Assembly: GCA_964592405.1 (NCBI GenBank)
Contig: CAZQBY010000011.1
Coordinates: 1-19,995 of the forward strand
Reading direction: 5' to 3'
DNA: 19,995 nucleotides
Origin: an uncultured archaeon
GTDB lineage: Archaea; Altiarchaeota; Altiarchaeia; JAFGQM01
Of the stretch, positions 1 through 16,458 are shown piece by piece (positions within the stretch are counted from its first letter, which is position 1; each line of letters begins with the position of its first letter). The notes below the pieces were generated by a model. It ran no database searches. It was not told where the DNA came from and worked only from the letters and a program-made list of their open reading frames with translations. Made by a program: the position numbers and the translations under genes.

Positions 1-3000
1 AGGTCACGGTCGTGGACTTCTCCGTCGTGCCGTTGCCAGGGGAGTTAAGGGTCACATTTGGGAAGTTATCTGGAACATAGCTCACGTTCCACCAGGCGTT
101 GGTCGTGTTGGCGTGGTTTGCTGAAGAGTCCTCGCAGGTAGCGTTTATGGTGGAATAGTTGCCATTAGGCATATTAGTGAAGTTCCACGAGATATACGTA
201 CCTACAGTGGAGTTGGGGTAGGCCGTGCCGTTGAAGTAGAGGGTACAGTTGACATCCTCGCTAGCCGTTATGTTTATGGTGGTGGAGTTGAAGGCAGTGG
301 TCGAGTTGTGGCCGTTGGCGTAGGTCCAGTTCCACTCTAGCTCCGGGGCTGTTGTATCTCCCTCCCCGATGGTGTAGTTAGACCACGCGCTGACCTTGAA
401 GATGACCGTGGCCGCGTCCAGGGAGGTATAGGCGTGGCAGCTTGGGGTGGTCTGGTCGTTGCAAACCTCGCCGTTTCTCAGGATGACCGGGTTGCTGAAG
501 CCCCACTCGTCGATTTCGTAGAGAGTGATGTTGGCCGTGGAGTTTATCCCGTCCCAGGGCGAGGTGAAGGCGGGGGCGAGGTAGGCGGTGTTGTTGCCGA
601 TGATTATGTTGTGCTTGGTGGCGTCACTCTCGCCGAAGGTCAGGTCGCCCTTGGTGGAGAGGTTCTGGCGGAAGCTTGAGCTGGTCCAGTTGATGATTCC
701 ATGGCTATTCTGGTAGTGGAAGTAGTTGGTGTATCCGACTCCGCTGGAGTCGTTTATCTCTGTGTTGTAGGCGTTCTGGAAGGTGTTGTTCCAGAAGGTG
801 TTGGTGCCAGAACTGACAATGTAAAGCGAGTAGTTGCCGCCCGTAACGGTGTTGTCCCAGAAGCGGTTGGAATCCGCGCCTGATTCGAGGTAGATGCCCG
901 CCGATTTTGCGTTCGGGGCGGTTGCGTTGATTGTGCATGCAGAAACATTGGTTGAGTCCGCGCCATACAGATAGATTCCATAGCTTCGGAAATAGGATGT
1001 GGACGACGCTGAGGTGATGTTCATTGTCTCATTTTGGATGGTGTTGGAGTTCATGGACGTGCCGGAATTATCCAGATAGACTCCATAGGCGAATGAGCTT
1101 GCGTTCAAGTCAAAAGTGTTGTCACGGATGGTGTTGGAATCCGACGTGCCCTCATTACTCAGATAGACTCCATTGGTGGATAATGCGTTCAAGTCAAAAG
1201 TGTTGTCCCGGATGGTGTTGGAGCTCATGGACGTGCCCCCATTAGTCAGATAGACTCCGTAGGCGGTTGAGCTTGCGTTCAAGTCAAAAGTGTTGTCCCG
1301 GATGGTGTTGGAGCTCATGGACGTGCCGGAATTATCCAGATAGACTCCGTAGATCTCTGAGCTTGCGTTCAAGTCAAAAGTGTTGTCCCGGATGGTGTTG
1401 TAATCCGACGTGCCGGAATTCCACAAAAAGACTCCATAGGCAATATAGTTTCCAGAGTTTATTGCGAGGGTGTTGTTCGTGATGTTGTTGCTTCCTGCTG
1501 TCTTCCCTGAATTGACGTAGACATAGATTGCATAAGAGTATGATGAGCCTCCTGTTGCATTCCACTCGATGGTGTTGTTCTTGATATCCACTGAGTCGGA
1601 GTCTGTCATGTGTATGGCATAGGTTGTGTCGCTGTGCTGCGTCTTCAGGTCGTTGTCATCTATGGTTGAAGAGTTGGTGTTGGTGAAGCGTATGCCGTAG
1701 TTGCTGTTGTTCCAGAGCGTGTTGTTGGATATCGTTATGTTGACGACTGCCTTCGCGGCTATGCCTATGGTGTTGTTGTTTATGGTTGAGTTGATGACTG
1801 TGACGTTGTCCGCTGTTATGTTGACCCCGCAGTAGGGATCATCCACTGTGATGTTCTGTACTGTCACATTGGAGGCGGAAATTTTGACAGCCGAGGAGAC
1901 AAAGTCCTCTATGTAGCAGTTCTTGATGGTGACATTGCTCGTAGTTGAGTTTATGGCTATCTCCGCCACAGCACCGCCATCTATGTGATGGCTGCTACAG
2001 TCAAAGACCACATTGTCCGCTGTGATGTTGAAGCAGGTGTGGTCGGTTGTTATGTCCGAGGATAGTGTATAGGTCCAGCCCGAATGGCTTAGCTCTGTGC
2101 ATGCTGAAATCTCGCCAACGGCTATTCTTATCCACGCATTTGTGGTATTGGCGTTGTTTCCGCTCTCATCATCGCAGGTTGCGTTGATTGGCGTGTAGTT
2201 GCCGTTGGAGAGCCCCTTCCTCCACCAGCATATCTGCGTGCCTGTGGTTGTGTTGACATACCTCGTGCCAGCGAAGATGAGGGTGCAGTTCACTACCTCA
2301 TTGGAGTCCACGCATATCTTGGTCTTGTTCGTTTGGGTCAGCGTGGAGTTGATGTCTGCCCAGTTCCATGTGAGAATCGGTGGGGTGGTGTCAGGACCTG
2401 TATGGGTAATATTATTGCCTTCTGTTCCGGGCTCGACAGTGAGGTTATAGATTGTGACATTGTAGACGCTGCCATCCTGCACATAGGTGAAGCAGGTCTG
2501 CGTTACAGGTCCGCTGCACTGGAGTATTTCCTCCACATTGAAGTGGCCATCATGGGAGATGAAGTTGAAGCTGTAAGGTTCAAAACTCATGTTGAACTTG
2601 GTTGTATTCAGTGTTATATTGCTGGCAGCCAGACTGTCTATCATCATCGTCAAATCACTGCCGTCATCGAAGGAAGAACTGGAGTTGAAGTAGATGTCAA
2701 CAGATGAGTCAATCAGGTGGCCTGCCTCATCATAGAGGTAGGTGATGTTGTCGGTTCCGGAGGGACGCTCTTCCTCCAGCACAAAGGTGCCGTTTAAGAT
2801 GTAAACCTCCTCCATCGGGCCTATTGTAACATTGCCGAAGTCGTCCGTGAAAAGGGTCAGCGTGGAGGTGTTCGCGTTCCAGGCGTGGGTGAAGTTTCTT
2901 CTCAGGTGGACAGTGGCGTTGAAGGTATGGTTAGTGAAGACATTATAGAGCTGCATGTAGGAATCCCTGTCAAAGAGCATGAGCTCGCTCTGTTCCACAC

Positions 3001-6000
3001 GGCTGCCGTTTACCAGAGTACCTATCTGGGCGACCGAAAGCAGGTTGGCCACCAGGGTCTGGCCACTGTCCTGATCATACCACAGATCCGTGTAGGCATT
3101 ATATTCTGAAGACAAGCTGGATGTCCTTGTCCTGTTTATGCGCAGGTCATCTATGTAGAAGGTGTGCGCCCCGTTCCCGAAGTCACTGCCGTCTATTGAG
3201 AAGTTGACTGTTTGTATATTGCTCCTTGAAAGACCGCTTATGTCTATCTCCACCAGACTCCAGCCGCTCGAAAGCTGGGAGGAGAAGTCATATTTATCCA
3301 GCACCCAAGAGCCGCTGTTCTTTAGGGAGATGTAATAGTTGGGTGCTGTCTCGGTCGTGTAGAACCAGAAGGTAAGGTCAGTAAACTGGTCCCAATCGGC
3401 AAAGGCGTTTTCACCAGAACCGCTAACAGGCCGGGATATGTACTTGAGATTATTGTCCGAGCCGCTCTGTGTGAAGGTCCACTGGAGAGACTTCATGTCG
3501 CGCTTCTTCTGCGTCTCGCTGAAGCCAACACTCTGCGTGCCGTCGCTTGCTGTCCATGTGACATTATTGTTCTCAAAGTAGTCGATAACACGCACGCTGT
3601 CATTGCGGGCATTGCTCCTCAGTATGTGCCAGAGGAGTTGCTTTGAAACATTCAGATAGAGTTCATTGCCTGTATGTTTGTATGCGTTGATAACGGCGGT
3701 GAGTGTCCAGGGAATCATATTGTAGTCAGCAAAGACTCCGGAGTCGCCGTTGGTGACAGGTATGCTTGGGCTCTCCCAGTCGTGGCTCATCCTCGAGAGA
3801 CCTCCGGTCATCCAGTAATACTCATCAGGGAACTTGTCCATGAACACACCGGAGTAGATGACGTGGTCCATAATATCATTCCCCCATTCTTTGTAGGTCT
3901 TGTTTCCTGTTATGTCATAGAGCAGATAGAGGGTATTGGCGGTATAAGACTGGGTGTTGAAGGTGACAACCTTTCGCGTATCCTCCAGCATCCATACAGG
4001 TCTCTGGAAGACATAGGTATAGTTCTCCGCTACGCTCGTGGCCCTGTTGAGGTAGGACTGATTGTTTGTGAACATATATGCCTGCAGCATGGTGTTTATA
4101 CCCAGCATCTGTGCATCCCAGTTGTCAGAGTCTACATAGTTCTTGTCTGAGCCATCTGTCTGGATAAGCCACTTCCATCGGTATTTTGTCTCGTTCCACA
4201 ATCCCCCCATGCTACCGGGGGTTGTTTTTTTGTAGAGGCCCTCTATATTCCTCATTATTATCCGCCTTGCGCTTGCGTTGTGCGTGTACATATATTCAGC
4301 TATGAACCCTGCCAGCTGGTGCGGCTGGCTCCACATATAAGCTGTAACATCCTTATACCAATTTTCATCTATATTGTCATCACCTGCCTGACCGGCTACC
4401 ATCACACCCGGCCGCGTAGCGTCCTTGAAATAGCCATATCTCCAGTCACTGGCGCTGTAATCCTTTTCATTGTACCGGAGGGTCTTGTTGAGGTAGGCAT
4501 TGTGTCCCTTGGCCTTGTTGAGATAGTAGGTGTCGCCGGTCTTGTAGAACATTGCCATGAGGGACTTGGAGACAAAGACGTTGTTCCAGTCGCTTGTGTC
4601 ATTTGGCGGATCATCGTTATCATCTTCGCCTGTGTAGTAAGCGGTCTCTGCATAGCCGTCACTGTGGAAGCATGTGTCCAGAACACTCTGGTCCGTAAAG
4701 GCATCCCTGACCTCCTCATAGTGGAAGTTGCTGTAAGATATGCCATTGGAGGCAAGATAATTGCTGTAGTATGTGGATACATTGGTGTCCTCCACCACAA
4801 AGTCCAGTGATATTGTGCTCTTAGCACTCGGCGCAAGGGATGTGCTCCTGTTGAGGACATACAATGTCTGGACGAAGAGTGCTTCTTCGTCGGCCCATGG
4901 GGGATTTGGCTCCATGTTGCGATATATCTGTATTGTCCCGCCACCATAGTTGTTCGGGCCGTAGTTCTTGGCATATCCGATGTAGCTGTCGCTGTAGGCC
5001 ACCGGTTTTATGCGCCTGACATAGTTCGGACCATAGGGATTGTTGTTGCGGTTAACATCACTGAAGAAGGAGGATATGATTCTCCGGCCGGGGAAGATTA
5101 TATATCTGAGTATATCATCGGCAGAGGCCAGCTTGTTGGTTATGGTGTCCACTATGTGTATAGTAGCATTGGTGTAGAGAGTGAAGTTGGTCTGGGTTCC
5201 GATGGTAATGCCGTCCGCCCACGTGGAGCTGAAGGTCCTTTGGGGTGTGGAGAGGTTGAGGACACATCCATCATGTATTATCTGGTGCTGCTGATACAGG
5301 TTGAGAGCCACACCTCTGGGCTTTCCCCCCTGGCCCCACAACTGCTGATAGTTGTCCGACCCATAGGGCGTTGCTATCATGGTCACACCAAACAGGTAGT
5401 TGGGTGGATCAGCATTGTCGTTCAGGAGCCTCTGTTGCTGATAGTAGGGTGTATTCTCCAAGAGAACCTCGTCCCTATAGGTAAAGGTGTCTATTGAATA
5501 ACCGTTCTCACTTGATATTTTCACATCCTGATATCTGAAGGTGAGGTTGGCATAGTCATTGTAGATGGAGATTGTATCATTCACGGAATCCGTGCCACTG
5601 TTATCGCGGTCAACCCAGACTATGGTGCTTGGGAACTCAAAGTGGTTCCATTCGGTGGTATTATGATTTCCTGCAAGATCCGTAGCGTTTATGGTTATAT
5701 TATACTTTCCATAATCCATTCCGGAGAAATCAACAGTAGCGTTCCAGTAGCCGTTGTATATTGTGCCTGACCCCAACGACATGGATGTCCAGGAGGAAGC
5801 CCAGGTCGCGTTGGAGATGCGGTATTTTACCGTGGAAATGCCGGAGGTATCGGAAACAGACACGTTTACCGTCATCTGTATGCACTGGAAGCTGTTGTTC
5901 CTTGGGGAGATTATGGTTATCTGTGGGTTGTCTGTGTCAACTAGGTTGATTTTCACCCAGGCGTTGGTGGTTGTATTGGAGTTATCAGAGATGTCCTCGC

Positions 6001-9000
6001 AGGTTACGTTAATGCTCGAGTAGTTGCCGTTGGATTTTCCTGTTATGTTGTAGCAGACAACCTCCGCTACCGTCTCGTTGACATAGTCAGTGCCGTTGAA
6101 ATGAAAGGTGCAGTTTATCCTCTCCTTCGGCTGGGATGAGTTGACACATATCTTCGTCCATGTAGTCCCTATGGTCGTGTTTATCTGAGACCATTTCCAG
6201 TTTATGTTGGGCGGAGTCTTGTCATCCTCGCTCACGTTCCACCAGGCGTTGGTGGTGTTGGACTCTATTGAAACCTCTGTGTGGCAGGTGGCATTTATGG
6301 GATAGTAGTAAGCATCTGGCATATTTGTGAGGTTCCAGCAGATATTCTTGCCGGATGTGGAGTTTGGATAGGAGTGGATGACACCTGATATATTTACATG
6401 AAGAGTGCAGTTCACTGTCTTGGAGGCATTGACACAGACAGTTGTGGAGTTGTGTCCTGTGGTGTCGTTGACGTCAGTCCAGTTCCAGTCAAGGGCAGCG
6501 GGGGTGGTATCCATAACCGTCAGCGTGGAGGTGTTCTCGCCGTATATGTTGTAGGTGCTGTTGACCTTGATTGTGTAATCACCTGCGGTTGAGGGAGCAG
6601 TAAAGGTGTAGTTGTACTTTCCGTCGAAATCCGTACGGAGGTAGTATTGTTCCGAGCCTATGCTCACATCGGAAGGTGTTGAGTAGGTGTGTGTGTTGTT
6701 GGTCCACAGAGTTACATTGTCGAAGAGACACTCGGCCCATGCACAGACAAGGGCAGCTGCGCCATCTGCAAGATCAGCACTGTTGTATGTCTGCCTAGTC
6801 TGCTGGCTGTAATCTATGAACATCCGAGAGACGGTGTCATTGTTCACTGTCTTTAGACGATACCACCGGTTCAGGCTGAAGCTGTAGCCTCCCTCAAACA
6901 GTGTCTGATAACCGCTGCTGTCCTCTTTTCCGAAGGACCGGTAATCATCATTTATCATCAACATGGAGAGGAACTTGTAACTGCTGCCGTCAAAGCGTGT
7001 GTAGAACTCTGTTTTTGCATTGTATGCACTGCCGCCCCAGTCCCTCATCATAGTATCTCCCTCAAAGACATAATCCCTGAGGGATAATGTACTGGATTTG
7101 TATTTGCCCACATCCCAGCCGCCTGTGTTGCTACAGTTGTAGACCTTGTTGCCATGGTAGTCGCTTATCTTCCAAGTACCCCAGCCGCTGTCCCATGGAT
7201 CGCTGCCCACTTCATAGTTCTCAAAGTCGTCCCATACATAGGCCACCGGATCGTATCCCGGGTCTGTTGCATCCGGGTTGCCATAATAGACCCAGAAGGT
7301 CTTTTCCTGGTCAGCTGTCAGGTTCACCCGGAAGGCTATCTTGCACCAGTGGGCACCCTGCTGGGCAGAAGAGCTGTTGTCCACTGTCTGGACACGGGTC
7401 GGGATACCGTTCTCGTCAATGACACGTATCTCCTTGGTGCAGTTCTCGTCAGCCGTGAGAAGGGTCAGGTTTGAGAGATTTACAACTATGGGCTCATTCC
7501 TTCTTTCGATGCTGGTGCTCTCAGAGATGGTGAGGTTCCTTCTGTATCTCCAGTGGAGGTCCCACCAATCCGGGGAGGAGACGTTTTCATCTACAAAAGT
7601 TGTAATGAGCGCATTATCAAGATATATGCCGATGGTGTTGTTCGGGGCATAGGACCCCTTGTAGCTGACATTTCCATAAACTGTAACGCTACTTCCTGTT
7701 GCCACCGGATTCGGGTTGAGAGTTACAGGTATCTGGAGTTTGTAGCGCCAGCTCACATTCCACCAGGCGTTTGTGGTGTTGGCCTCATTGGAGTATATGC
7801 TCTGGTCGTCGCAGGTTACATTGAGCGTATAGTTGGCATTTTTCATATTCGTGAAGTTCCAGCAGATGTTTGTTCCTACAGTGCTATTGGGATAGGCCTT
7901 GACCGTTCCGGAGATGTTTATGTGCAGGGTGCAGTTCACCAGCTCGGAGGCATTGACACATACTCTGGTAGTATTGAATTCGGTAGTCGCATTGTGGCCG
8001 TTGGCATATGTCCAGTTCCAGTCCAATGCAGGGGGGGTGAGGTCTGGCTGATAACTCACATTCCACCAGGCATTGGTGGTGTTGGACTTAAGACCCACTG
8101 TATTGTTGCATGTTGCGTTTATGGTGGAGTAGTTGCCGTCCTTCATGTTTGTGAAGTTCCAGCAGATGTTTGTTCCCGTGGTGGTATTGCGGTAGGCCGT
8201 ACCGTTAAAGTGAAGGGTGCAGTTTACGAGGTCATCAGAGGACAGGCAGATGGTTGTGGAGTTGGTGGATGTGGTTGCATTCTTGCCGATCCAGTCTGTC
8301 CATGACAGCACAGGCGGGGTGGTATCCGGTTTCCACCACGCAAGAGTAGTATTGGCAGTGTTAAACTGCTGACGCACACACCATGCGTAGTAGGTGTGGT
8401 TGGAACTGGGCAGGTTGGTCTGGTTCCAGGTCGGTGAGGTGGTAAATGTTCCATTTGCCCATTCCCTGTTGTCGCTGTATCGGCGCAATGTGCAATAAGC
8501 AGCGTTGGTGGAGGTTAGCCCTATGGTTGTGGAGTTGTAGCTGGTCGTGGAGTTTTTGCCCGCCCAGGAAGTCCAGGTCAGATGCATGGTATAATTTCTG
8601 CTCACATTCCACCAGGCGTTGGTGGTGTTCGCATGATTCCCGCCGGACTCGCAGGTCGCGTTGATGCTTGAGTAGTTGCCGTTGCCCATGTTAGTAAAGT
8701 TCCAGCAGATGTTCGTCCCTGTGGTCGTGTTGACATAGCTGGTTCCATTGAAGTGGAGGGTACAGTTGACCGCCTTAGAGGCGTTCACGCAGATGGTCGT
8801 GGAGTTGAAGCTCGTGGTAGCGTTGTGTCCGTTGGCATGGGTCCAGTTCCAGTCAATGTCGACGGAGGACAGATAGCTTACCCTCATTTCCGCGTATTCG
8901 ACTCTCATGTCCTCCGAGGCCCTATTAGAGAACACGAGCCAGGTTATCCGGCCGCTCCCGTCTATGTAAGTCGAGAAGCCCGATGACAGTGTGCGGTTCA

Positions 9001-11383
9001 CCCACGTGTCCGTGTCCGGCGGGACGCTTGTGGTCCCTCCCAGCTGGGTCCAGGAAGCGTCCAGCCACCAGTCCGCCCCGGCCTTTAGGACCCAGATAGA
9101 GTAATCGGTGGCGGAGGAGCCGTCCGTGTTTCCGTAATGGCTGAAGTTTATCTGCTGGATGCTGTCCACGGGCGACTCCGATAGGTCTATAGTGAAATCG
9201 TACCAGACGGTCATCTCGTCGCCGGGGCCTCCGTCGTCCGTCTGCCATTCGCTGCCCAACAGCTCGGTTATGGCCGTGTAGTCCGCTGAGGTCGCCTCGG
9301 TGTAATCGTTCCTGTTATTCCGGTTACCGCCGAACGGGAACACGTCCACCTCGGCCTCGTGGGCCCAACAGTCGGTGCCTATGTTGCAGGTGGCGAAGTT
9401 GTATGTGGTTGTGGCGGGGTCGATTATCTGGTCGAACTCGACGGGGGCACCGAGAACTTTCAAATCGAAGGTGTCACTGCTCCCGGTCAGGTTGGTCAAG
9501 TAGACCTTGTGCTCAGCCTCCGAGGAGATGCCCGCGAACGTGGCTATCTTCGTCCCGTTAGTCGTGTAGACCTCCACGGAAGCGAGAGAGCTGCTCCTCG
9601 CGTAGATGGTGATGTCCTTTGTGCTGTCCAGCTGCTGCCTGAAGGTGGCCCTGACGTAGTGGCCCTCAGGTATCTCCGGGCTCCACACGCCGTCGCGGTT
9701 GGCGGTCTCCGGGTAAACGTCCTCTATGAACTGCTTGTCCTCGTCCAAATGGAGCGCCTGCGCTATCTGGATGACCTCGCCGAAGCCTGGGTCCTCCGGG
9801 GTCATCCGGAAGGTGTACTCCTTACCCGGCTTCAGGCCCCTCTGGAAGAGCTCCCACTTGCCCAGACACTTCTGGGCTGCGAAATCCCAGTCCCTGCACT
9901 TGTAGAGGGCCGTCCCAGTCGCGGTCAGCGTGACATTGGCATAGTCAAACTCCATCTGCGTCGGGTCGATAGCGTAGACCTTGACGAAATCCCTCCCCGG
10001 GATTTTCTCCGGCTGGATTTCATCCAGGCCAAGGTCGAGCCCTGCTGAGAGGTTGAGGTTCGTGAAGGTTATGCTAGCGACAGGCGCTTGCTCAAGGGTG
10101 AGCTGCACTGAATTGTCCTTCAAAATGGCCACGGTCGCGTTGAGTTTCTGACCTCCACTCGTGGCGATGTTGAGCGCCTTCTCGATGTCCTTCGCCTTAA
10201 TGGGTGGCCCGGCCACAATGAAGCGCGCGGACAGGTTAAGTGGCTCGCATTCTATGTAGTACTTGCCGCGCTCGGTCGGCGAGTACAACAGGGAGAACGG
10301 ACCAGTCTGGGCCGGGAGGGGGTAGATAGTGTCGTCCGAGGGCGTCGTTATGGCGATGGTGCAGGACTCGTTCTCCGGCAGCCCCACGGTTATGTTGACC
10401 CTGTCGCCGAGCTTGTAGCTGTGCCTGTCTGTCGTCAGGTTGAAGGGCTGGAATTTCTTGCCGCGGGGCATCTTGTCCTGTGGGTGCTCCCTGGCAGTTA
10501 CGTTCACGACACTCATGTTGGATGGAAGTATCACAAAGCTCGTGGCCAAGACTCTAGTGCTCTCTTCGTATGCCAGGAGAGTCTGAACAGAATAGGCTCC
10601 GAGCTCGTCTGATGAGAATGCATATGTCGTATCGCCGTTGGCGACACCAATGGGATGTGATTTGCCATCCGGATAGATTATGGAAGTGGCAGATTTGACA
10701 GTTGGATCCGCCTTTATTCTTATGAGCACACTGTTGCCCGGAAGTATAACCTCATCATCCAGTGTGAGTGTGACATCGAGGAGTTCCTGTGGAATATTGG
10801 CAGATTGGTTGATAGGGGGTTGCTGTGTTTCGTTGGATGGAATTGTCTGGTTGATGGGTAGCTGTTCTGTTTCGTTTGCCGGCTGTCCGGTTTCGTTGGA
10901 TGGAATTGTCTGGTTGGCAGGGGGTTGTCCGGTTTCGTTGGATGGAATTGTCTGGTTGGGTAATTGGGTCTGGTTTTCTATACCCACCCTCTGAGAGGTT
11001 TGATTTTGGGGCAGGATAGAGAATGTTGTCATAAGAACCATAGACATGTTGGAAACGGAGAGATTTGAAGATGCTACATAATCTCCGGGAAGATTTGTTG
11101 CATAGCTGTAGTTGAAGCCGCCAAGATTATTGATTATGGGCGTAAATGTGTCGTTCGGCTCTTTTACAGTGAGTGATGTAATGGCTTCGGGCGGGGCATT
11201 AAGTGTTATAATAACGGATTCATTGGTGGTGTATATCTCCTTGTCGGTTGTCAGGTTGCTGGCTTGGAACAAAATGGTCAAAGGGTCTGTCTGTGTAAGG
11301 TTTGCGGCATAGGCTAATACTAAAGCCATGACGATTATGCACGCTCCGGCGATAATATAGCCCTTTTTCACTATTGCCCCCAT
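1..11383 (-). CDS. Giant secreted multidomain cell-surface glycoprotein/adhesin, >=3,794 aa, 3' end outside the window
   Basis: Manual translation from ATG at 11383 (MGAIVKKGYIIAGACIIVMALVLAYA-ANLT, a signal peptide; alternative GTG at 11371) stays open in one frame to position 2 (...NSPGNGTTEKSTTVT). The ORF track lists nothing in this frame, consistent with no stop in the window. The protein is rich in Asn/Thr/Ser/Trp/Cys with very dense N-x-S/T sequons. Confidence 0.93.
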   Translation of the reverse strand, partial: MGAIVKKGYIIAGACIIVMALVLAYAANLTQTDPLTILFQASNLTTDKEIYTTNESVIITLNAPPEAITSLTVKEPNDTFTPIINNLGGFNYSYATNLPGDYVASSNLSVSNMSMVLMTTFSILPQNQTSQRVGIENQTQLPNQTIPSNETGQPPANQTIPSNETGQPANETEQLPINQTIPSNETQQPPINQSANIPQELLDVTLTLDDEVILPGNSVLIRIKADPTVKSATSIIYPDGKSHPIGVANGDTTYAFSSDELGAYSVQTLLAYEESTRVLATSFVILPSNMSVVNVTAREHPQDKMPRGKKFQPFNLTTDRHSYKLGDRVNITVGLPENESCTIAITTPSDDTIYPLPAQTGPFSLLYSPTERGKYYIECEPLNLSARFIVAGPPIKAKDIEKALNIATSGGQKLNATVAILKDNSVQLTLEQAPVASITFTNLNLSAGLDLGLDEIQPEKIPGRDFVKVYAIDPTQMEFDYANVTLTATGTALYKCRDWDFAAQKCLGKWELFQRGLKPGKEYTFRMTPEDPGFGEVIQIAQALHLDEDKQFIEDVYPETANRDGVWSPEIPEGHYVRATFRQQLDSTKDITIYARSSSLASVEVYTTNGTKIATFAGISSEAEHKVYLTNLTGSSDTFDLKVLGAPVEFDQIIDPATTTYNFATCNIGTDCWAHEAEVDVFPFGGNRNNRNDYTEATSADYTAITELLGSEWQTDDGGPGDEMTVWYDFTIDLSESPVDSIQQINFSHYGNTDGSSATDYSIWVLKAGADWWLDASWTQLGGTTSVPPDTDTWVNRTLSSGFSTYIDGSGRITWLVFSNRASEDMRVEYAEMRVSYLSSVDIDWNWTHANGHNATTSFNSTTICVNASKAVNCTLHFNGTSYVNTTTGTNICWNFTNMGNGNYSSINATCESGGNHANTTNAWWNVSRNYTMHLTWTSWAGKNSTTSYNSTTIGLTSTNAAYCTLRRYSDNREWANGTFTTSPTWNQTNLPSSNHTYYAWCVRQQFNTANTTLAWWKPDTTPPVLSWTDWIGKNATTSTNSTTICLSSDDLVNCTLHFNGTAYRNTTTGTNICWNFTNMKDGNYSTINATCNNTVGLKSNTTNAWWNVSYQPDLTPPALDWNWTYANGHNATTEFNTTRVCVNASELVNCTLHINISGTVKAYPNSTVGTNICWNFTNMKNANYTLNVTCDDQSIYSNEANTTNAWWNVSWRYKLQIPVTLNPNPVATGSSVTVYGNVSYKGSYAPNNTIGIYLDNALITTFVDENVSSPDWWDLHWRYRRNLTISESTSIERRNEPIVVNLSNLTLLTADENCTKEIRVIDENGIPTRVQTVDNSSSAQQGAHWCKIAFRVNLTADQEKTFWVYYGNPDATDPGYDPVAYVWDDFENYEVGSDPWDSGWGTWKISDYHGNKVYNCSNTGGWDVGKYKSSTLSLRDYVFEGDTMMRDWGGSAYNAKTEFYTRFDGSSYKFLSMLMINDDYRSFGKEDSSGYQTLFEGGYSFSLNRWYRLKTVNNDTVSRMFIDYSQQTRQTYNSADLADGAAALVCAWAECLFDNVTLWTNNTHTYSTPSDVSIGSEQYYLRTDFDGKYNYTFTAPSTAGDYTIKVNSTYNIYGENTSTLTVMDTTPAALDWNWTDVNDTTGHNSTTVCVNASKTVNCTLHVNISGVIHSYPNSTSGKNICWNLTNMPDAYYYPINATCHTEVSIESNTTNAWWNVSEDDKTPPNINWKWSQINTTIGTTWTKICVNSSQPKERINCTFHFNGTDYVNETVAEVVCYNITGKSNGNYSSINVTCEDISDNSNTTTNAWVKINLVDTDNPQITIISPRNNSFQCIQMTVNVSVSDTSGISTVKYRISNATWASSWTSMSLGSGTIYNGYWNATVDFSGMDYGKYNITINATDLAGNHNTTEWNHFEFPSTIVWVDRDNSGTDSVNDTISIYNDYANLTFRYQDVKISSENGYSIDTFTYRDEVLLENTPYYQQQRLLNDNADPPNYLFGVTMIATPYGSDNYQQLWGQGGKPRGVALNLYQQHQIIHDGCVLNLSTPQRTFSSTWADGITIGTQTNFTLYTNATIHIVDTITNKLASADDILRYIIFPGRRIISSFFSDVNRNNNPYGPNYVRRIKPVAYSDSYIGYAKNYGPNNYGGGTIQIYRNMEPNPPWADEEALFVQTLYVLNRSTSLAPSAKSTISLDFVVEDTNVSTYYSNYLASNGISYSNFHYEEVRDAFTDQSVLDTCFHSDGYAETAYYTGEDDNDDPPNDTSDWNNVFVSKSLMAMFYKTGDTYYLNKAKGHNAYLNKTLRYNEKDYSASDWRYGYFKDATRPGVMVAGQAGDDNIDENWYKDVTAYMWSQPHQLAGFIAEYMYTHNASARRIIMRNIEGLYKKTTPGSMGGLWNETKYRWKWLIQTDGSDKNYVDSDNWDAQMLGINTMLQAYMFTNNQSYLNRATSVAENYTYVFQRPVWMLEDTRKVVTFNTQSYTANTLYLLYDITGNKTYKEWGNDIMDHVIYSGVFMDKFPDEYYWMTGGLSRMSHDWESPSIPVTNGDSGVFADYNMIPWTLTAVINAYKHTGNELYLNVSKQLLWHILRSNARNDSVRVIDYFENNNVTWTASDGTQSVGFSETQKKRDMKSLQWTFTQSGSDNNLKYISRPVSGSGENAFADWDQFTDLTFWFYTTETAPNYYISLKNSGSWVLDKYDFSSQLSSGWSLVEIDISGLSRSNIQTVNFSIDGSDFGNGAHTFYIDDLRINRTRTSSLSSEYNAYTDLWYDQDSGQTLVANLLSVAQIGTLVNGSRVEQSELMLFDRDSYMQLYNVFTNHTFNATVHLRRNFTHAWNANTSTLTLFTDDFGNVTIGPMEEVYILNGTFVLEEERPSGTDNITYLYDEAGHLIDSSVDIYFNSSSSFDDGSDLTMMIDSLAASNITLNTTKFNMSFEPYSFNFISHDGHFNVEEILQCSGPVTQTCFTYVQDGSVYNVTIYNLTVEPGTEGNNITHTGPDTTPPILTWNWADINSTLTQTNKTKICVDSNEVVNCTLIFAGTRYVNTTTGTQICWWRKGLSNGNYTPINATCDDESGNNANTTNAWIRIAVGEISACTELSHSGWTYTLSSDITTDHTCFNITADNVVFDCSSHHIDGGAVAEIAINSTTSNVTIKNCYIEDFVSSAVKISASNVTVQNITVDDPYCGVNITADNVTVINSTINNNTIGIAAKAVVNITISNNTLWNNSNYGIRFTNTNSSTIDDNDLKTQHSDTTYAIHMTDSDSVDIKNNTIEWNATGGSSYSYAIYVYVNSGKTAGSNNITNNTLAINSGNYIAYGVFLWNSGTSDYNTIRDNTFDLNASSEIYGVYLDNSGTSMSSNTIRDNTFDLNASSTAYGVYLTNGGTSMSSNTIRDNTFDLNALSTNGVYLSNEGTSDSNTIRDNTFDLNASSFAYGVYLDNSGTSMNSNTIQNETMNITSASSTSYFRSYGIYLYGADSTNVSACTINATAPNAKSAGIYLESGADSNRFWDNTVTGGNYSLYIVSSGTNTFWNNTFQNAYNTEINDSSGVGYTNYFHYQNSHGIINWTSSSFRQNLSTKGDLTFGESDATKHNIIIGNNTAYLAPAFTSPWDGINSTANITLYEIDEWGFSNPVILRNGEVCNDQTTPSCHAYTSLDAATVIFKVSAWSNYTIGEGDTTAPELEWNWTYANGHNSTTAFNSTTINITASEDVNCTLYFNGTAYPNSTVGTYISWNFTNMPNGNYSTINATCEDSSANHANTTNAWWNVSYVPDNFPNVTLNSPGNGTTEKSTTVT
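760..2115 (-). other. Right-handed parallel beta-helix (NosD/PbH1/pectin-lyase-like) domain
   Basis: Cap ISACTELSHSGWTYTLSSDI...TCFNITADNVVFDC, followed by repeated GIxL...NxTIxNN rungs. Confidence 0.85.
1036..1442 (-). repeat. In-frame tandem repeat of 84-90 bp beta-helix rungs (about 4.5 copies)
   Basis: Anchor tgcgttcaagtcaaaagtgttgtc at 1100, 1184, 1274 and 1364 (spacing 84, 90, 90). It encodes GVYLxNxGTS(D/MS)xNTIRDNTFDLNA. Confidence 0.92.
3135..3600 (-). other. CBM11/CIA30-like galactose-binding beta-sandwich
   Basis: VIDYFE...KSLQWTF...DWDQFTDLTFWFY...GWSLVEIDISGL...NIQTVNFSI...TFYIDDLRI. Confidence 0.65.
3610..4610 (-). other. (alpha/alpha)6 six-hairpin glycosidase-like barrel domain
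   Basis: Five repeated helix-hairpin motifs: LMAMFYKTGDTYYLNKA, FIAEYMYTHNASARRII, MLQAYMFTNNQSYLNRA, LYLLYDITGNKTYKEWG, VINAYKHTGNELYLNVS. Confidence 0.7.
6700..7570 (-). other. DUF2341-like domain followed by a ConA-like lectin/glucanase (DUF1080-like) domain
   Basis: WWDLHWRYRRNLTI...EIRVIDENG...KTFWVYYGNPDA is the DUF2341 pattern. It is followed by WDDFE...RDYVFEGD...LNRWYRLK...MFID...CLFDNVTL, a ConA-like beta-sandwich pattern. Confidence 0.65.
10220..11260 (-). other. Three MG2-like/Ig-like N-terminal domains of the giant protein
   Basis: Domain starts LTTDKEIYTTNESVII, LTLDDEVILPGNSVLI and LTTDRHSYKLGDRVNI resemble the TDKxxYxxGxxV motif of macroglobulin MG2-type Ig domains. Each ends with a G-x-Y strand. 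Confidence 0.55.
10827..10958 (-). repeat. Three identical 27-bp repeats encoding the NQTIPSNET linker
   Basis: gtttcgttggatggaattgtctggttg occurs at 10827-10853, 10890-10916 and 10932-10958, in frame within a Pro/Gln/Asn-rich linker. Confidence 0.9.
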
Positions 11384-11450
11384 TAAGTCTACCTAAAGCT
11401 ACCTACATCTAGCCTGAGCTAGCTTATCTACTTTCATGCTACGCTACCAC
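11384..11450 (-). repeat. Degenerate 10-nt-period TAG repeat array in the 5' leader of the giant gene
   Basis: Minus strand reads GTGGTAGCGTAGCATGAAAG-TAGATAAGC-TAGCTCAGGC-TAGATGTAGG-TAGCTTTAGG-TAGACTTA-ATG, which contains nine TAG. Confidence 0.6.
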
Positions 11451-11523: not shown

Positions 11524-12786
11524 CTAATAGCCAGACAATCCTGATCGTCTCCGCCTGCCCCCCCTGCGCCTTCTGACGTTTATTATGCGTATGGCAAAGA
11601 GCGCTACGATTATGACTATCAGGAGGATGATTACCCATGTGTAGTCGGCCCCAGCCGGAGGTGCTTCCTCCTCCTCTTCCGGAGCCTCGGAAACCACCCT
11701 CTGGTTGACATTGAGTATGGTGCTTTTCTCCTCCGTTATCTTGCCGGAGTAGTAGACAATACCGATTATCTCATATTTGCCAACCTCCTGTGGCTTGTAG
11801 AATGCAGTCAGGTTCACGGTCTCACCTACCTCAACCCTCATCTCCTCGCTTTCTACAACATCCTTGAGAGCACCGTCAAGGAGTATCTGGAACTTGGCCT
11901 TGGCCATTGTCACCATTTCGCCTATGTTGCTGAATATGGCATCTATGCGGGATGTGTCGCCGACCTGTGTCCAGACGCTGGATCTGACCGAGTTTAGAAC
12001 CCCCTTTACCCTCAGGGCCCCGCGCTCCAGATAATCAAATGTCATGATCTCCTGCCCAATCTGCCGGCCGTCCTGATACATGGTTATTCTCGCCCAGTAT
12101 TGGCCGAGTTTTAGATCATCTGTCGGGATTGTTATGAGGATTTCTTCTCTGGCTGTTGGCAGGATTTCTGTCTCAGAGTAATCCACGGATTTGACGACTT
12201 TCTGCTTCATCTGGTCGAGTATTTCAACCTTTATCTCCGGTCTTATTCTGACGTTGCCTGTGTTGATTGCCGTTAGCTTGACTTCTATCGGATTGCCCTC
12301 CTCTATGTCCTTAACCTCAATATTCTGGTATGTCCACCGCTTTATCTCGCGGTCGGTTATTATGGCTGTTGTCTTTATGGCAGCTGCAGCGCCAATGCCA
12401 ATAGCTGTGCCCTCCTCAGCGTAAACCTCTTTGGGCTTTAGGGCTACATATATCAAACCCTTATATTCTCCATTGGAAACATCATCCGGTGGGCGTATGA
12501 ATGCCCTGATCTTGGTTAGTGTCCTGCCCTCAACCTCAAAGGTGTTTGTATCAAAGGACACCCAGTCCCAGTCCTCACCGTCCTCCCATTTTGCATAAAC
12601 CCTTCCCACAAGGGTCTGCCTTCCGGAGCTGCTGATTGTGATTTGCTGCTCCGCATATCCACCACGCAGGAGATTTTTGAATGTGATTGTTCCGGGGCTC
12701 ACACCAACGCTGATTGCACCGCAGTTTGGCAGGAGGATAGATAACCCTATAAGGAAAATCAACAGACATATTATCTTTGATTTCAT
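11524..12786 (-). CDS. Membrane-anchored multi-Ig surface protein, DUF916/DUF3324 (WxL-interacting protein)-like, 420 aa
   Basis: Signal peptide, then VGVSPGTITF...PPDDVSNGEYKGLI...INTGNVRIRP...ILP...LGQYWARI, an acidic linker, a C-terminal TM helix (WVIILLIVIIVALFAI) and an Arg-rich tail. Confidence 0.8.
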   Translation of the reverse strand: MKSKIICLLIFLIGLSILLPNCGAISVGVSPGTITFKNLLRGGYAEQQITISSSGRQTLVGRVYAKWEDGEDWDWVSFDTNTFEVEGRTLTKIRAFIRPPDDVSNGEYKGLIYVALKPKEVYAEEGTAIGIGAAAAIKTTAIITDREIKRWTYQNIEVKDIEEGNPIEVKLTAINTGNVRIRPEIKVEILDQMKQKVVKSVDYSETEILPTAREEILITIPTDDLKLGQYWARITMYQDGRQIGQEIMTFDYLERGALRVKGVLNSVRSSVWTQVGDTSRIDAIFSNIGEMVTMAKAKFQILLDGALKDVVESEEMRVEVGETVNLTAFYKPQEVGKYEIIGIVYYSGKITEEKSTILNVNQRVVSEAPEEEEEAPPAGADYTWVIILLIVIIVALFAIRIINVRRRRGGRRRRSGLSGY

Positions 12787-12913: not shown

Positions 12914-13882
12914 TCACCCCTTGACTGCCGTATAGGTTGCCCAGCCGGTACATGTGCCGGACACACCAGACGGTACTTTCAAGGTCAGATAGGTCTCTGT
13001 GTTGTTTGGCCCTCCACCGAGCCCGGTCGCATCCTCGGAAAAGTCAAAGTTCGTCGCAAAGCCACCACATGTGCTCGCCGGGTTGAAATCCATCTTGCAG
13101 CAGTCAAGCCATTCCTGCTCGGTGTCGCACTTGCCTGAGCCGGCACCGCCCGTATCTGCAGAATTGTTGTATGCTATCTGCTGGGGGGTTATGTTCAGAG
13201 AACCAGGCCCTGTGCAGGTCATGTTTGTTGCGTTTATCTGAAGATCAAACCGCACATTGCCCGTGTTGTTGACCTCTACTGTTTCCTCGCTTATCTGACC
13301 GACCTGCATTGTTCCCCAGTTTACTGAATCAGTGATGTTCATGGCAAGCAGATCGTTTACGGTCACGTTCGTAAAGTTATAGTCCTTGTTGCCACTTGCA
13401 TCCCTAGCTATAATCCATGCGGTGAAGTTGCCCTCATCACTTGTTGCCTCTGCATACCACCAGACCGTAAATGAGCACTCAACATCAAGGGTGTTGCCGT
13501 TCTCGTTTGAGTAGGTGCACGAAACGTTGTGGTAACACGACGAATTGTCCTTGCCTACCAAACCGTCGCTCTTACATGTCTGGAGGGTCTCCGTCAGGTT
13601 GAGCATCAGAGAGGCATTTACATCGCCCTGCTGAGAGATATCCTGATAGCCGTTTGGATCATATATTTCCGCTGAACACACAAGTATGGTAGAGTCGAAC
13701 AGACCACTTGCATTCAGGGTTAGCGGATTTGGGTTACAGGTTACTGTATGCACCTGCGGCGGGTTGTTTGTTATGGATACCTGCAGCGGGATTGTCTCCT
13801 TATAGGCAGACAATGCCAGCTGCGAGCCTAATATTATGCTAAATAATAATAGGCTCATACCTATTATCAGTCTTTTGGTCAT
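12914..13882 (-). CDS. Secreted Cys-rich glycoprotein, putative pilin/WxL/TasA-like structural subunit, 322 aa
   Basis: Signal peptide, no TM anchor, 12 Cys and about 15 N-x-S/T sequons. The C-domain reads VNWGTMQVG...VNNTGNVRFDL...TYLTLKVPSGVSGTCTGWATYTA. SD-like AGGTG upstream. Confidence 0.85.
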   Translation of the reverse strand: MTKRLIIGMSLLLFSIILGSQLALSAYKETIPLQVSITNNPPQVHTVTCNPNPLTLNASGLFDSTILVCSAEIYDPNGYQDISQQGDVNASLMLNLTETLQTCKSDGLVGKDNSSCYHNVSCTYSNENGNTLDVECSFTVWWYAEATSDEGNFTAWIIARDASGNKDYNFTNVTVNDLLAMNITDSVNWGTMQVGQISEETVEVNNTGNVRFDLQINATNMTCTGPGSLNITPQQIAYNNSADTGGAGSGKCDTEQEWLDCCKMDFNPASTCGGFATNFDFSEDATGLGGGPNNTETYLTLKVPSGVSGTCTGWATYTAVKG

Positions 13883-15257: not shown

Positions 15258-15953
15258 CTAGTAGACTGCAGGGATTTCTATGTTAAGTGCATGATCCACC
15301 AGATCCAGAAACTGCCGGACCTGTATCCTGCTGTCCTGTGGTTTGAATTCGGAGAAGTTGTTTGTGCATTTTGGACAGGCAGCCGTTATAACGCACTTCC
15401 TAGGTGCCTGTGCCAGTCGCATCTCAGCTCCCCTCTGCCTCAGAACACGTATTGGTGAGTAGTCGCCACAGCAGTCGGTGTTTGACCTGTTGTTCTTGAA
15501 CTCCCTGATTGTATATCCAAGGATCTCAAGGACTCTGCGCGGTTCATCCATCAGATGATGAAAGCGCGCTAGATAGCATGGGTCATGATAGAAGACCTCA
15601 CCAGAGCCTATGAAATTGCCATCCACGGACCTGAGCTTCTCGTATATGACCTGGCTTATGTGCTTTGCCTTTATGTTGTAAAATTCGCGAAAGATGTGAT
15701 AACAGCGCGCGCAGCCCACTATAACAAGGTTATAGTCCTTCAAAAACGTATTGTTCTCCTCAACCAATGCCTCTATGCGGCCTTCATCCACACCAAAAAA
15801 TTCACAGCCACAGCTGAATTCCCTGACGTCCACATCCACGCCGAGCTTGTTGAGCACCTTCACACCGAGGTATCCCTCATCGCTTCCGCAGTCATGACAT
15901 CCCATATGGAGGATTGCCCTGCCCCTGAGCATGGAAACAAGTGAAGAGAGCAT
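15258..15953 (-). CDS. Cysteine-rich CCG-domain Fe-S protein (HdrB/HdrD/GlpC/LutA-like)
   Basis: HMGCH...FSCG...VGCARC and YHDPCYLAR...DCCG...AACPKC. Start at ATG 15953 or 15932; the track's 16025 start overlaps rps8e. Confidence 0.85.
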   Translation of the reverse strand: MLSSLVSMLRGRAILHMGCHDCGSDEGYLGVKVLNKLGVDVDVREFSCGCEFFGVDEGRIEALVEENNTFLKDYNLVIVGCARCYHIFREFYNIKAKHISQVIYEKLRSVDGNFIGSGEVFYHDPCYLARFHHLMDEPRRVLEILGYTIREFKNNRSNTDCCGDYSPIRVLRQRGAEMRLAQAPRKCVITAACPKCTNNFSEFKPQDSRIQVRQFLDLVDHALNIEIPAVY

Positions 15954-16005
15954 CGTTATCAGCCGGGTAATTGAAAAAACGGTCAGTAAAACACAATTAA
16001 CACAA

Positions 16006-16362
16006 TTACTCCAGCAGGACGGCATTTACCACACCATCCTGACTTGGCCGGGATGTAATTCTGGCCCTGCCAAGCTCTGTCTCTATCTCGCCGCCCAGTG
16101 CAAGGACACTCTCTCTTTTGAAATCCTTGTCCGCGGCGTTGTCTCCAACAGACCTGATGGCGACCTTCTGTGTTTTTCCCCTGACCGAGACATTGGCAAA
16201 TCTGGCTTTCACAGCCACGGTCTTTGTCCTCCCGCCGGTCACACGCAGATTTTTTCTCTCCTCCCTATCCGAAAGCCTGGTTTTTATCGGATCTGACCCA
16301 AGCTCGTTCTTTTTCTTCTTCCTCTTTTGGAGTTTGACCTTCCTTCCCTGATATTTTGCCAT
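16006..16362 (-). CDS. rps8e: 30S ribosomal protein S8e, 118 aa
   Basis: KKKNELGSDP...RVTGG...ANV...IETELGRARITSRPSQDGVVNAVLL. ATG 16362 is preceded by SD GGTGA. Confidence 0.96.
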   Translation of the reverse strand: MAKYQGRKVKLQKRKKKKNELGSDPIKTRLSDREERKNLRVTGGRTKTVAVKARFANVSVRGKTQKVAIRSVGDNAADKDFKRESVLALGGEIETELGRARITSRPSQDGVVNAVLLE

Positions 16363-16458
16363 GTTAGAAATCACCGGCAGCCCGGCTTTGTAAAAGTGAT
16401 TTTTGAGTTTGGATATTCTGCATGGGGCAATAATATCCGGCAGAATCTCCCCATCTTA
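16363..16458 (-). promoter_or_regulatory. Structured 5' leader of rps8e (pseudoknot plus SD-sequestering hairpin)
   Basis: Complementary pairs on the mRNA: AUGGGG/CCCCAU, AUUCUGC/GCAGAAU, GGAUAUU/AAUAUCC, and AAAUCAC/GUGAUUU covering the SD. Confidence 0.5.

Follow-up and report, generated by a model that had tools for sequence, protein, structure and literature searches.

Archaea with small genomes are thought to live attached to other cells, and their attachment and its effects on cell envelopes are poorly understood. Here, we describe a giant gene at one end of a 19,995-nucleotide stretch of DNA (referred to as the window: contig CAZQBY010000011.1, or C11, of assembly GCA_964592405.1; G000:C11:1-19995) from an uncultured member of the Altiarchaeia, a small-genome, DPANN-like archaeon of hydrothermal-vent metagenomes, together with two neighbouring genes, p420 and p322. 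On balance we favour the view that the visible part of the giant gene encodes the first 3794 residues of a secreted surface protein of ~5,000-6,000 residues, which would be exported, N-glycosylated, glycan-binding and possibly glycan-cutting, and anchored through a partner. Taken by itself, the giant gene belongs to a known kind, the giant DPANN-type adhesins, and is an unremarkable case of it. What is new here is a very rare predicted barrel module in its stalk that resembles glycoside hydrolase family 76 (GH76), and a docking pair that is predicted only, though with good support.

A giant reading frame that runs off the contig

An open reading frame (ORF) listing with open ends, followed by translation, gives a stop-free minus-strand frame of 3794 codons with an ATG start (from stop to stop the span is 2..11392, or 3797 codons).

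2..11383, minus strand: giant ORF, N-terminal 3794 codons (ATG at 11383, truncation at the contig start, collinear homologs)

No other open frame of the 1.13-Mb assembly is as long (the runner-up has 2424 codons), and a random frame of 3794 codons would be stop-free with a probability of (61/64)^3794, or ~1e-79, assuming uniform codons and three stops in 64. An earlier note, made from the letters of the window alone, had described one uninterrupted frame from 11383 to the window edge, with codon starts at 1 mod 3 and absent from the ORF track. Translation confirms the frame with zero stops, and the highest base of each codon fits the stated phase (11383 = 3 x 3794 + 1). The frame was indeed missing from the track, 'hidden' because ORFs running off an end are unlisted by default. 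Among the short ORFs in the same interval, which the note took for shadows, none of the 12 other-frame ORFs of at least 100 aa inside 1..11383 has a Pfam family at E ≤ 0.01, and the long frame carries four families above cut-off, namely Beta_helix, NosD, DUF2341 and Big_7 (DUF4861 overlaps the DUF2341 stretch and DUF7743 the Big_7 stretch).

The frame reaches the first base of C11; the gene is truncated there by the assembly and not by a stop, and is larger than the portion visible to the earlier note. The supposition of a small archaeal genome also holds, the source assembly (G000; 22 contigs) amounting to 1.13 Mb at 87% completeness. The rest of the window encodes eIF2-alpha, S8e, prefoldin, an aldehyde dehydrogenase and ordinary housekeeping genes.

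Relatives and the missing C-terminus

Extension beyond the window edge, which the earlier note had proposed as a check, leads nowhere on C11, as the contig ends there, and the missing C-terminus is placed instead by synteny on another contig, C22. The comparison depends on a genome of the same genus, G002, which holds a complete ortholog of 6133 residues with start and stop (on G002:C7) and a partial ORF (on G002:C56) collinear with giant residues 1263-3719 at 52% identity. Residues 1057-3161 of the giant align with residues 1544-3644 of the complete ortholog at 50% identity, and the N-termini of the two proteins are 41% identical; the alignments with these two collinear G002 homologs span 2171 and 2511 residues at 50-52% identity. 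Upstream, p322 and p420 are 52% and 60% identical, respectively, to the two genes upstream of the ortholog. On C22 of the archaeon described here, positions 4351-7731 hold a 1127-residue ORF without an N-terminus (C22a), whose last 251 residues are 65% identical to the end of the ortholog, and the 577-aa gene that follows C22a (p577) is 60% identical to the gene after the ortholog. Synteny on both flanks and the likeness of the C22a end thus indicate that the giant continues, past an unassembled gap, in C22:4351-7731, which would place the missing C-terminal 1127 residues on C22 and bring the assembled total to at least 4,921 residues. No exact overlap was found between the first 21-127 bases of C11 and any other contig end, so that C11 and C22 are not joinable by sequence.

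A scan of genome contigs with the whole protein returned only one further relative (L009). The central 1101 residues are found, among 61 genomes of the class, only in this assembly, with one copy, and in G002, with two (G002:C7 and G002:C56, 60-61% identical to the central region in the window). Behind the beta-helices of the 6133-residue ortholog, a cap segment of ~100 residues occurs twice in identical form. On the minus strand of C22, a further sequon-rich paralog begins after p577 (positions 2-2506); only its N-terminal part is assembled, as the contig start truncates it within the same type of immunoglobulin (Ig)-like domain as the giant of the window.

Soundness of the assembly

Parts of the giant gene occur in nine public sequencing runs from nine studies, eight labelled hydrothermal vent metagenome and one marine metagenome; in three of these runs, 71-92% of the sampled words of the gene are found. 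Contigs of four runs match it mostly at ≥99% identity with zero insertions or deletions; these contigs are short, with a maximum of 2461 nt, none covers the whole gene, and gaps in the cover of single runs (e.g. run X1 at 801-1200) carry no evidential weight. Of the faults that the earlier note had named, an in-frame stop is absent from the translation and a frameshift is absent as far as these contigs extend.

These data bear on an artefactual origin of the frame, either as a chimera of paralogous surface-protein genes joined at repeats or as a decaying pseudogene, which we regard as very improbable. Repetition is what speaks for it: a Cys-rich repeat is present in 29 copies in six ORFs, C11 breaks off inside a repeat, branch points in public contigs lie at 393, 625 and 2057, and one contig (from X1) joins 8084 to 8648 across Cys-rich repeats, skipping 563 bases and placing 20 other letters between. 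Behind this last join is either assembly across repeats or a strain lacking one repeat copy. In addition, summed depth rises two- to three-fold in 401-800; the branching and the rise in depth fit near-identical repeated modules, which are probably the reason why C11 ends there. A chimera or pseudogene is, however, hard to reconcile with the collinearity of two independently assembled G002 homologs over the spans given above, synteny on both flanks, 3794 codons without a stop and public contigs without indels, those of 950-2461 nt tiling 2757-9990 end to end at ≥99% identity.

Module composition of the giant protein

Pfam and NCBIfam were run on 15 overlapping tiles of the giant, a domain scan of the kind suggested by the earlier note, and the result is a multi-module protein. 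The modules, with residue numbers of the giant, are as follows.

11306..11383, minus strand: signal peptide, residues 1-26 (basic n-region, hydrophobic core, A-Y-A before the likely cleavage site)
10202..11305, minus strand: probably three Ig-like sandwiches, residues 27-394 (fold suggested by sub-threshold Pfam matches to A2M_BRD, MG2 and Reeler)
8873..10201, minus strand: modules of no assigned family, residues 395-837 (partly common to paralogs on C22, C9 and C2)
7748..8872, minus strand: four tandem ~93-aa Cys-/sequon-rich Ig-like repeats, residues 838-1212 (repeat motif and hidden Markov model (HMM))
7187..7435, minus strand: DUF2341, residues 1317-1399 (PF10102, 30.6 bits versus a cut-off of 23.4)
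6512..7186, minus strand: probable lectin-like beta-sandwich followed by an Ig-like module, residues 1400-1624 (sequence pattern, DUF2341 context)
5942..6511, minus strand: two more Cys-rich Ig-like repeats, residues 1625-1814 (repeat HMM)
5639..5941, minus strand: Big_7 / DUF7743 bacterial-type Ig domain, residues 1815-1915 (PF17957, 32.5 versus 24.1; PF24893, 32.1 versus 27)
4787..5638, minus strand: predicted N-terminal beta-sandwich of the enzyme-like module, residues 1916-2199 (model m1b4aee5babe1, strands at model residues 21-299)
3584..4786, minus strand: predicted (alpha/alpha)6 barrel, glycoside-hydrolase-like, residues 2200-2600 (closest to GH76 by VIA; Foldseek matches to carbohydrate-active enzymes)
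3128..3496, minus strand: predicted beta-sandwich like a carbohydrate-binding module (CBM), residues 2630-2752 (model strands 734-851; relatives P0006-P0009)
2396..3127, minus strand: conserved stretch without an assigned family, residues 2753-2996 (kept in the ortholog)
2117..2395, minus strand: Cys-rich Ig-like repeat, residues 2997-3089 (repeat HMM)
719..2026, minus strand: right-handed parallel beta-helix (NosD / Beta_helix), residues 3120-3555 (Pfam above cut-off; TIGR03804 repeat)
359..718, minus strand: cap module found after each beta-helix, residues 3556-3675 (69% identity to the start of C22a)
77..358, minus strand: eighth Cys-rich Ig-like repeat, residues 3676-3769 (repeat HMM)

The N-terminal region of residues 27-394 includes a sequon-rich, N-x-T/P-rich linker at ~126-194 and is 41% identical to the N-terminus of the ortholog and 33% to a paralog on C9. 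Residues 395-837 match no Pfam or NCBIfam family, and an Atlas look-up gave no usable match for them; residues 1400-1624 have only sub-threshold matches to Invasin_D3 and choice_anch_X. The Cys-rich repeat, of which the giant has eight copies, is ~93 residues long with four conserved Cys and several sequons. The copies were found via a motif anchor and an HMM (self-BLAST for internal repeats gave nothing useful), and the repeat profile has chance-level matches only in the PDB, as has the whole giant protein against PDB sequences (E 0.15-0.85). Weak Ig-type matches occur elsewhere in the giant tiles. The beta-helix scores well above the cut-offs of its two families (PF13229, 54.9-64.4 bits versus 25.9; PF05048, 54.8-64.9 bits versus 23.6), and the cap module behind it recurs in the gene family, with loose contig ends at 393 and 625. 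The first ~40 residues of the stretch 2753-2996 are modelled as barrel-closing helices, and VIA alignments of the barrel extend to model residues 887-901.

The mix of adhesion, carbohydrate-binding and putatively catalytic modules that had been read from the letters therefore stands in outline. Adhesion-type modules are present as Big_7 and the eight Cys-rich Ig-like repeats, and carbohydrate-binding-type modules as DUF2341, above cut-off, and as a beta-sandwich whose distant relatives have sub-threshold CBM_11 and Lyase_N matches. The putatively catalytic part comprises the barrel modelled closest to GH76 and the NosD-type beta-helix, with no glycoside-hydrolase family reaching the sequence threshold.

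Export and N-glycosylation

The only hydrophobic segment of the giant lies at residues 3-30 and has the features of a signal peptide, with a cleavage site judged by eye. The protein is rich in Asn (10.4%), Thr (11.9%) and Ser (9.4%) and contains 203 N-x-S/T sequons, versus 80.6 ± 7.4 expected from 500 shuffles. This corresponds to 5.35 sequons per 100 aa, versus a median of 0.30 for 512 genome ORFs of at least 300 aa; in a ranking of the genome by density, the giant and its paralogs come first and nearby surface-protein ORFs, p322 among them, come next. A gene for an STT3/AglB oligosaccharyltransferase is present in the genome (STT3, 61.5 bits, above cut-off). Six sequon-rich ORFs occupy ~3% of the assembly (summed by hand). 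The densest of all, at 6.2 sequons per 100 aa, is a paralog of 2046 codons (G000:C3:92840-98977, plus strand), which has 13 copies of the Cys-rich repeat and differs from the giant in having a membrane helix at its C-terminus. A search of the genome (87% complete) gave no CdhC, which has little bearing on lifestyle.

The central enzyme-like module

When residues 1900-3000 were used as an HMMER query in an exhaustive search of 1.84 billion representatives, seven proteins were returned at E ≤ 1e-3, three of them at E ≤ 1e-30. The seven comprise the ortholog, two stand-alone proteins of ~800 aa (P0004 and P0005), which cover giant residues ~1918-2593 at 28-32% identity, and four proteins that match only the ~120-150-residue sandwich at ~2601-2767. 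P0004 and P0005 look secreted and are the only stand-alone relatives of the beta-sandwich-plus-barrel module; one stand-alone relative is the representative of a 63-member cluster named as a hypothetical protein of the bacterium Candidatus Saccharicenans. This distribution suggests an undescribed carbohydrate-enzyme-like family common to bacteria and this archaeal genus. By Pfam, the relatives have sub-threshold matches only (GH127, GH76, C5-epimerase, CBM_11 and Lyase_N; the bacterial homolog P0005 scores 21.1 bits against PF03663, the GH76 family, below its cut-off of 25.9). The barrel of the giant weakly matches GlcNAc_2-epim and C5-epim, and PF03663 has no match on any giant tile at E ≤ 1. 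A profile of the module finds nothing significant among PDB sequences, and no GH76 chain; it picks up a short helix motif in common with GH47 mannosidases at E 0.05. In a five-sequence alignment of archaeal and bacterial members, many Asp, Glu, Trp and His residues are invariant.

In an AlphaFold2 model of the module, with a mean predicted local distance difference test (pLDDT) score of 57.7 and cores at 70-90, an all-helical barrel lies between two beta-sandwiches. With Foldseek, the top match is a polysaccharide lyase (5no8, E 4.8e-8), followed by GH94 phosphorylases and a xanthanase, at low template-modelling (TM) scores. When the barrel is aligned with VIA-align, the GH76 alpha-1,6-mannanases are closest (Z 24.1-24.9, root-mean-square deviation 3.3-4.0 Å, 307-332 residues). 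In an unbiased search of 48,161 chains, the first row is 3k7x (Z 24.9), an unannotated structural-genomics protein, which we take to be GH76-like, and rows 2-9 are GH76 by title or by close match to GH76 (Z 22.7-24.1), followed by GH88 (Z 21.9) and cellobiose 2-epimerases (Z 21.7). The modelled barrel thus has the fold of the six-hairpin glycosidases and, like the GH76 endo-alpha-1,6-mannanases (4v1s, 6shm, 4boj, 3k7x), is predicted to adopt the (alpha/alpha)6 fold over 297-335 residues with Z 22.7-24.9; GH88/GH105 hydrolases and cellobiose 2-epimerases are only 2-3 Z units behind. It differs from GH76 in its low identity (9-13%), the lack of a Pfam GH76 match on the giant, and its setting between two beta-sandwiches inside a giant stalk. 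GH76 enzymes have a catalytic Asp-Asp pair, according to the PDB titles of inactive variants; here, the five-sequence alignment (A1) has an invariant E-D pair at positions 568-569 (E2467-D2468 of the giant), and the D of a YGYFxD motif is likewise invariant.

Two other interpretations of the giant have to be considered. In the first, the protein would be a purely structural or adhesive fibre, the barrel, beta-helix and sandwiches being non-catalytic, lectin-like binding or spacer modules of a protein whose sole role is to stick cells to a partner cell, a mineral or a biofilm matrix. We regard this as unlikely, although it deserves serious weight: no hydrolase or lyase family reaches threshold, (alpha/alpha)6 barrels are also found in non-hydrolytic proteins, with epimerases scoring Z 21-22, and sequon-rich beta-helix and Ig modules are typical of DPANN surface proteins regarded as adhesins, as far as the available portions of the reports on them go. 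A passive fibre is less easily squared with a barrel module that is 26-27% identical to stand-alone bacterial proteins and shares with them many invariant Asp, Glu, His and Trp, a pattern that active sites show more typically than spacers do. The barrel module also has a low sequon density (4-5 per 200 aa, versus 10-22 in the stalk), as in a compact functional domain. In the second interpretation, the giant would be a self-serving polysaccharide-foraging enzyme on the cell surface, comparable to a cellulosome or glycanase and unrelated to a host. The occurrence of stand-alone homologs in a bacterium named for sugar use, the polysaccharide lyases, phosphorylases and xanthanase among the best multi-domain Foldseek matches, and the aldehyde dehydrogenase and ordinary housekeeping genes of the window speak for such a role. 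It is nevertheless quite improbable, as a single enzyme-like module in more than 3,794 stalk residues is an odd design for a feeding enzyme, and a 1.13-Mb genome with ~3% in six sequon-rich surface paralogs fits the host-attached DPANN pattern, in so far as the accessible part of the literature describes it.

The tail domain and its predicted membrane dock

The earlier note had also proposed a search for an anchor. No C-terminal membrane helix was found at the ends of the ortholog and C22a, and partner genes probably answer the anchor question instead. Beyond the signal peptide, the giant has no other hydrophobic segment and C22a has none; the G002 ortholog has, besides its signal peptide, only a borderline segment at 4039-4057, inside a beta-helix. 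The ortholog and C22a both end in a tail domain of ~250 residues, of which this genome has only two copies, one in C22a and the other in p322, whose gene lies upstream of the giant next to that of p420.

11524..12786, minus strand: p420, with a signal peptide, three CARDB-like Ig domains, a C-terminal membrane helix and an Arg-rich tail (predicted membrane dock)
12914..13882, minus strand: p322, small secreted stand-alone copy of the tail domain (39% to the C22a tail, 33% to the ortholog tail)

The CARDB-like assignment of p420 is based on sub-threshold matches. Its family has 22 members of ~400 aa in a 5.8-billion database, with one relative labelled Aenigmarchaeota; for p322, a word-index search found 3 proteins and a profile search 22, all unnamed or 'hypothetical'. 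Within the class, the tail profile (A2) has matches in 21 of 61 genomes, which belong to 10 of 31 genera. The matches lie in proteins of ~310-350 aa and in open frames of 1296-2658 aa and up to 6136 aa, with the G002 ortholog and C22a carrying the domain at the very end of a giant ORF. With the p420 profile, 45 of the 61 genomes have a match. When only tail matches covering most of the profile are counted (35, partial ones dropped), a p420-family gene lies 6-133 nt downstream on the same strand in 21 of them, in 14 of 17 genomes. In one relative, four tail-domain-only genes stand in tandem (G020:C79:41741-45790 and neighbouring genes), and its contig C79 has additional genes of the tail and p420 types, an arrangement that resembles an enlarged docking system.

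The gene after C22a encodes p577 (minus strand of C22, 2572-4302), whose 577 residues include a signal peptide, Ig-like parts, a coiled coil, a membrane helix and an Arg-rich tail; like p420, it has one C-terminal hydrophobic segment. Its N-terminus is weakly like the tail domain (probability 79%, in a match that includes the signal peptide). As a possible relative of p420, it was rejected (hhalign probability 1.7%).

A model of the complex between the p420 ectodomain and p322 reaches a score of 0.73 (runs 0.74, 0.71 and 0.73), the best of three controls scoring 0.00, and so passes a mark attained by 116 of 157 solved complexes and by 2 of 215 mismatched pairs, counts that are only approximate as a calibration, since custom alignments were used. 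The runs share at least 88% of their contacts, with a partner pLDDT of at least 77. Contacts are modelled between p420 residues 121-138 and 25-33 and p322 residues 176-192 and 309-321; p420 121-138 is rich in Gly, Ala and Ile and conserved in the family consensus, and p420 130-136 is modelled in parallel pairing with the C-terminal strand of p322 (314-319). Profile searches of the PDB with p322 and p420 found no significant sequence relative, so that, by sequence, resemblance to a solved complex does not account for the pass. As a prediction, the modelled complex speaks for binding of p322 by p420.

Comparison with known surface proteins and docking systems

Giant N-glycosylated DPANN-type surface proteins are a descriptive class and not a curated family. 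According to the available portions of the reports, pectin-lyase-like and lectin-like N-glycosylated surface proteins occur in Nanobdella aerobiophila (bioRxiv 10.1101/2023.10.27.564410), nanohaloarchaeal giant surface proteins reach 9,409 aa (PMC10266531), and such giants have been proposed to serve host attachment or envelope degradation (PMC10266531; bioRxiv 10.1101/2023.10.27.564410). The giant described here resembles them in the small genome, a Sec signal peptide, very many N-glycosylation sites, Ig-like repeats, a parallel beta-helix ('pectin lyase-like') and lectin-like modules. It has the traits that define the class: an export signal with a non-membrane ectodomain, an excess of sequons together with STT3, and Ig, lectin and beta-helix modules. 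In contrast to nanohaloarchaeal SPEARE-type giants, no VirB4/TraG-like ATPase family is found by Pfam and NCBIfam in the 3794 assembled residues, and where a VirB4-type ATPase gene lies downstream in SPEARE systems (PMC10266531, in the part available), here the giant is followed by a 577-aa membrane protein that has no such domain by eye. Unlike most Nanobdella surface proteins, as the accessible text presents them, the giant lacks a C-terminal membrane helix (none is stated there for the pectin-lyase-like ones), and unlike DPANN giants it carries the predicted (alpha/alpha)6-barrel module found in three proteins at E ≤ 1e-30 among 1.84 billion.

The predicted docking pair resembles the WxL/WxLIP clusters of Firmicutes as portrayed in the available sections of PMC10599100. 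In both, a small docking-only protein (here p322), a large protein with the same C-terminal domain behind binding modules (here the giant) and an Ig-like partner with a C-terminal membrane helix (here p420) are encoded alongside each other, and a partner strand is predicted in parallel beta-pairing with the docking domain (PMC10599100, section 2.4), in both cases from models only. In contrast to WxL/WxLIP proteins, p322 and p420 have no WxL, DUF916 or DUF3324 Pfam match at E ≤ 5, and p420 has three CARDB-like domains in place of a DUF916-DUF3324 pair. Archaea of this kind have no peptidoglycan, so that the peptidoglycan-binding role of WxL cannot carry over. By analogy, the p322/p420/giant locus is a WxL/WxLIP analogue, not a demonstrated member. 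A further parallel is seen in chaperone-usher-type pili and in the Pam pili of bacteria of the candidate phyla radiation (PMC13278184, available part), where an Ig-like domain is completed by a partner strand, as predicted here, and the genes of a subunit and its membrane-associated Ig-like partner are adjacent; sequence relation to these pili was compared only via the PDB profile searches of p322 and p420. An usher was not found here, although no search was aimed at one. A limited literature search found no description of such a barrel module or docking system in archaea.

Proposed model and its implications

In the proposed model, the giant would be exported by Sec and heavily N-glycosylated. 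Its Ig-like repeats would form a long stalk bearing lectin-like modules and one or more beta-helices, and the central sandwich-barrel-CBM-like module would bind, and possibly cut, a glycan on the envelope of another cell or in the matrix, which may be mannan-like, judged from the resemblance to GH76. The protein would have no membrane-helix anchor of its own; its tail is proposed to be an Ig-like sandwich completed by a beta-strand of a membrane-anchored partner, with the same docking logic for p322 and p420 and probably for the tail of the giant and p577. Catalysis, docking and attachment to a host are all inferred here; the role suggested in the earlier note, host attachment or envelope degradation, is plausible by analogy with the giants of cultivated DPANN archaea.

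Several observations weigh against this model. For the enzyme-like part, no glycoside hydrolase, polysaccharide lyase or CBM family reaches the Pfam threshold on the giant, and the barrel model is mediocre, its mean pLDDT of 57.7 coming from five sequences. E2467-D2468 lies far along the barrel from the adjacent Asp pair of GH76, in what is a rough placement by chain numbering, and a shared fold does not establish function. Beta-helices of the kind found here are common in non-enzymatic archaeal surface proteins. For the docking part, 14 of the 35 tail genes are without an adjacent p420 gene (some of them at contig ends), and the related genomes are kin, so that such neighbourhood counts lack independence. 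It was the p322-p420 pair that was modelled as a complex, not the tail of the giant itself, and p577, encoded after that tail, has no detectable relationship to p420. On its own, p322 folds poorly (pLDDT 46.8, from a program that differs from the complex run); this would fit a fold completed by a partner strand, but is no proof of one. The N-terminal segment of the giant could remain uncleaved and itself serve as an anchor. Finally, the last ~700 residues in the window sit in the branching repeats, where the order of modules is less certain than elsewhere.

A bolder version of the model, possible but in our estimate doubtful, would be that of an archaeal counterpart of WxL/WxLIP or chaperone-type docking without detectable sequence relation to either, in which an incomplete Ig tail is completed by a partner strand and the cargo carries the founder of a new glycoside-hydrolase-like family, with a GH76-like barrel otherwise present in only a few bacterial proteins, that cuts mannose-type glycans of a host envelope. 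If true, strand completion would be a way in which wall-less cells hold or hand over megadalton adhesins, and the docking mechanism would apply class-wide, given the tail-plus-anchor pair in 14 of the 17 related genomes with a full-length tail gene. The locus supplies a very rare enzyme-like module that is expressible and assayable alone, and a small docking protein and membrane partner with a predicted strand-insertion complex.

Further features of the window

The gene for a CCG (cysteine-rich) domain protein lies at 15258-16374 of the window on the minus strand and overlaps the end of the S8e gene by ~20 bases. A scaffold gap of 100 N (C11:19996-20095) begins right after the window.

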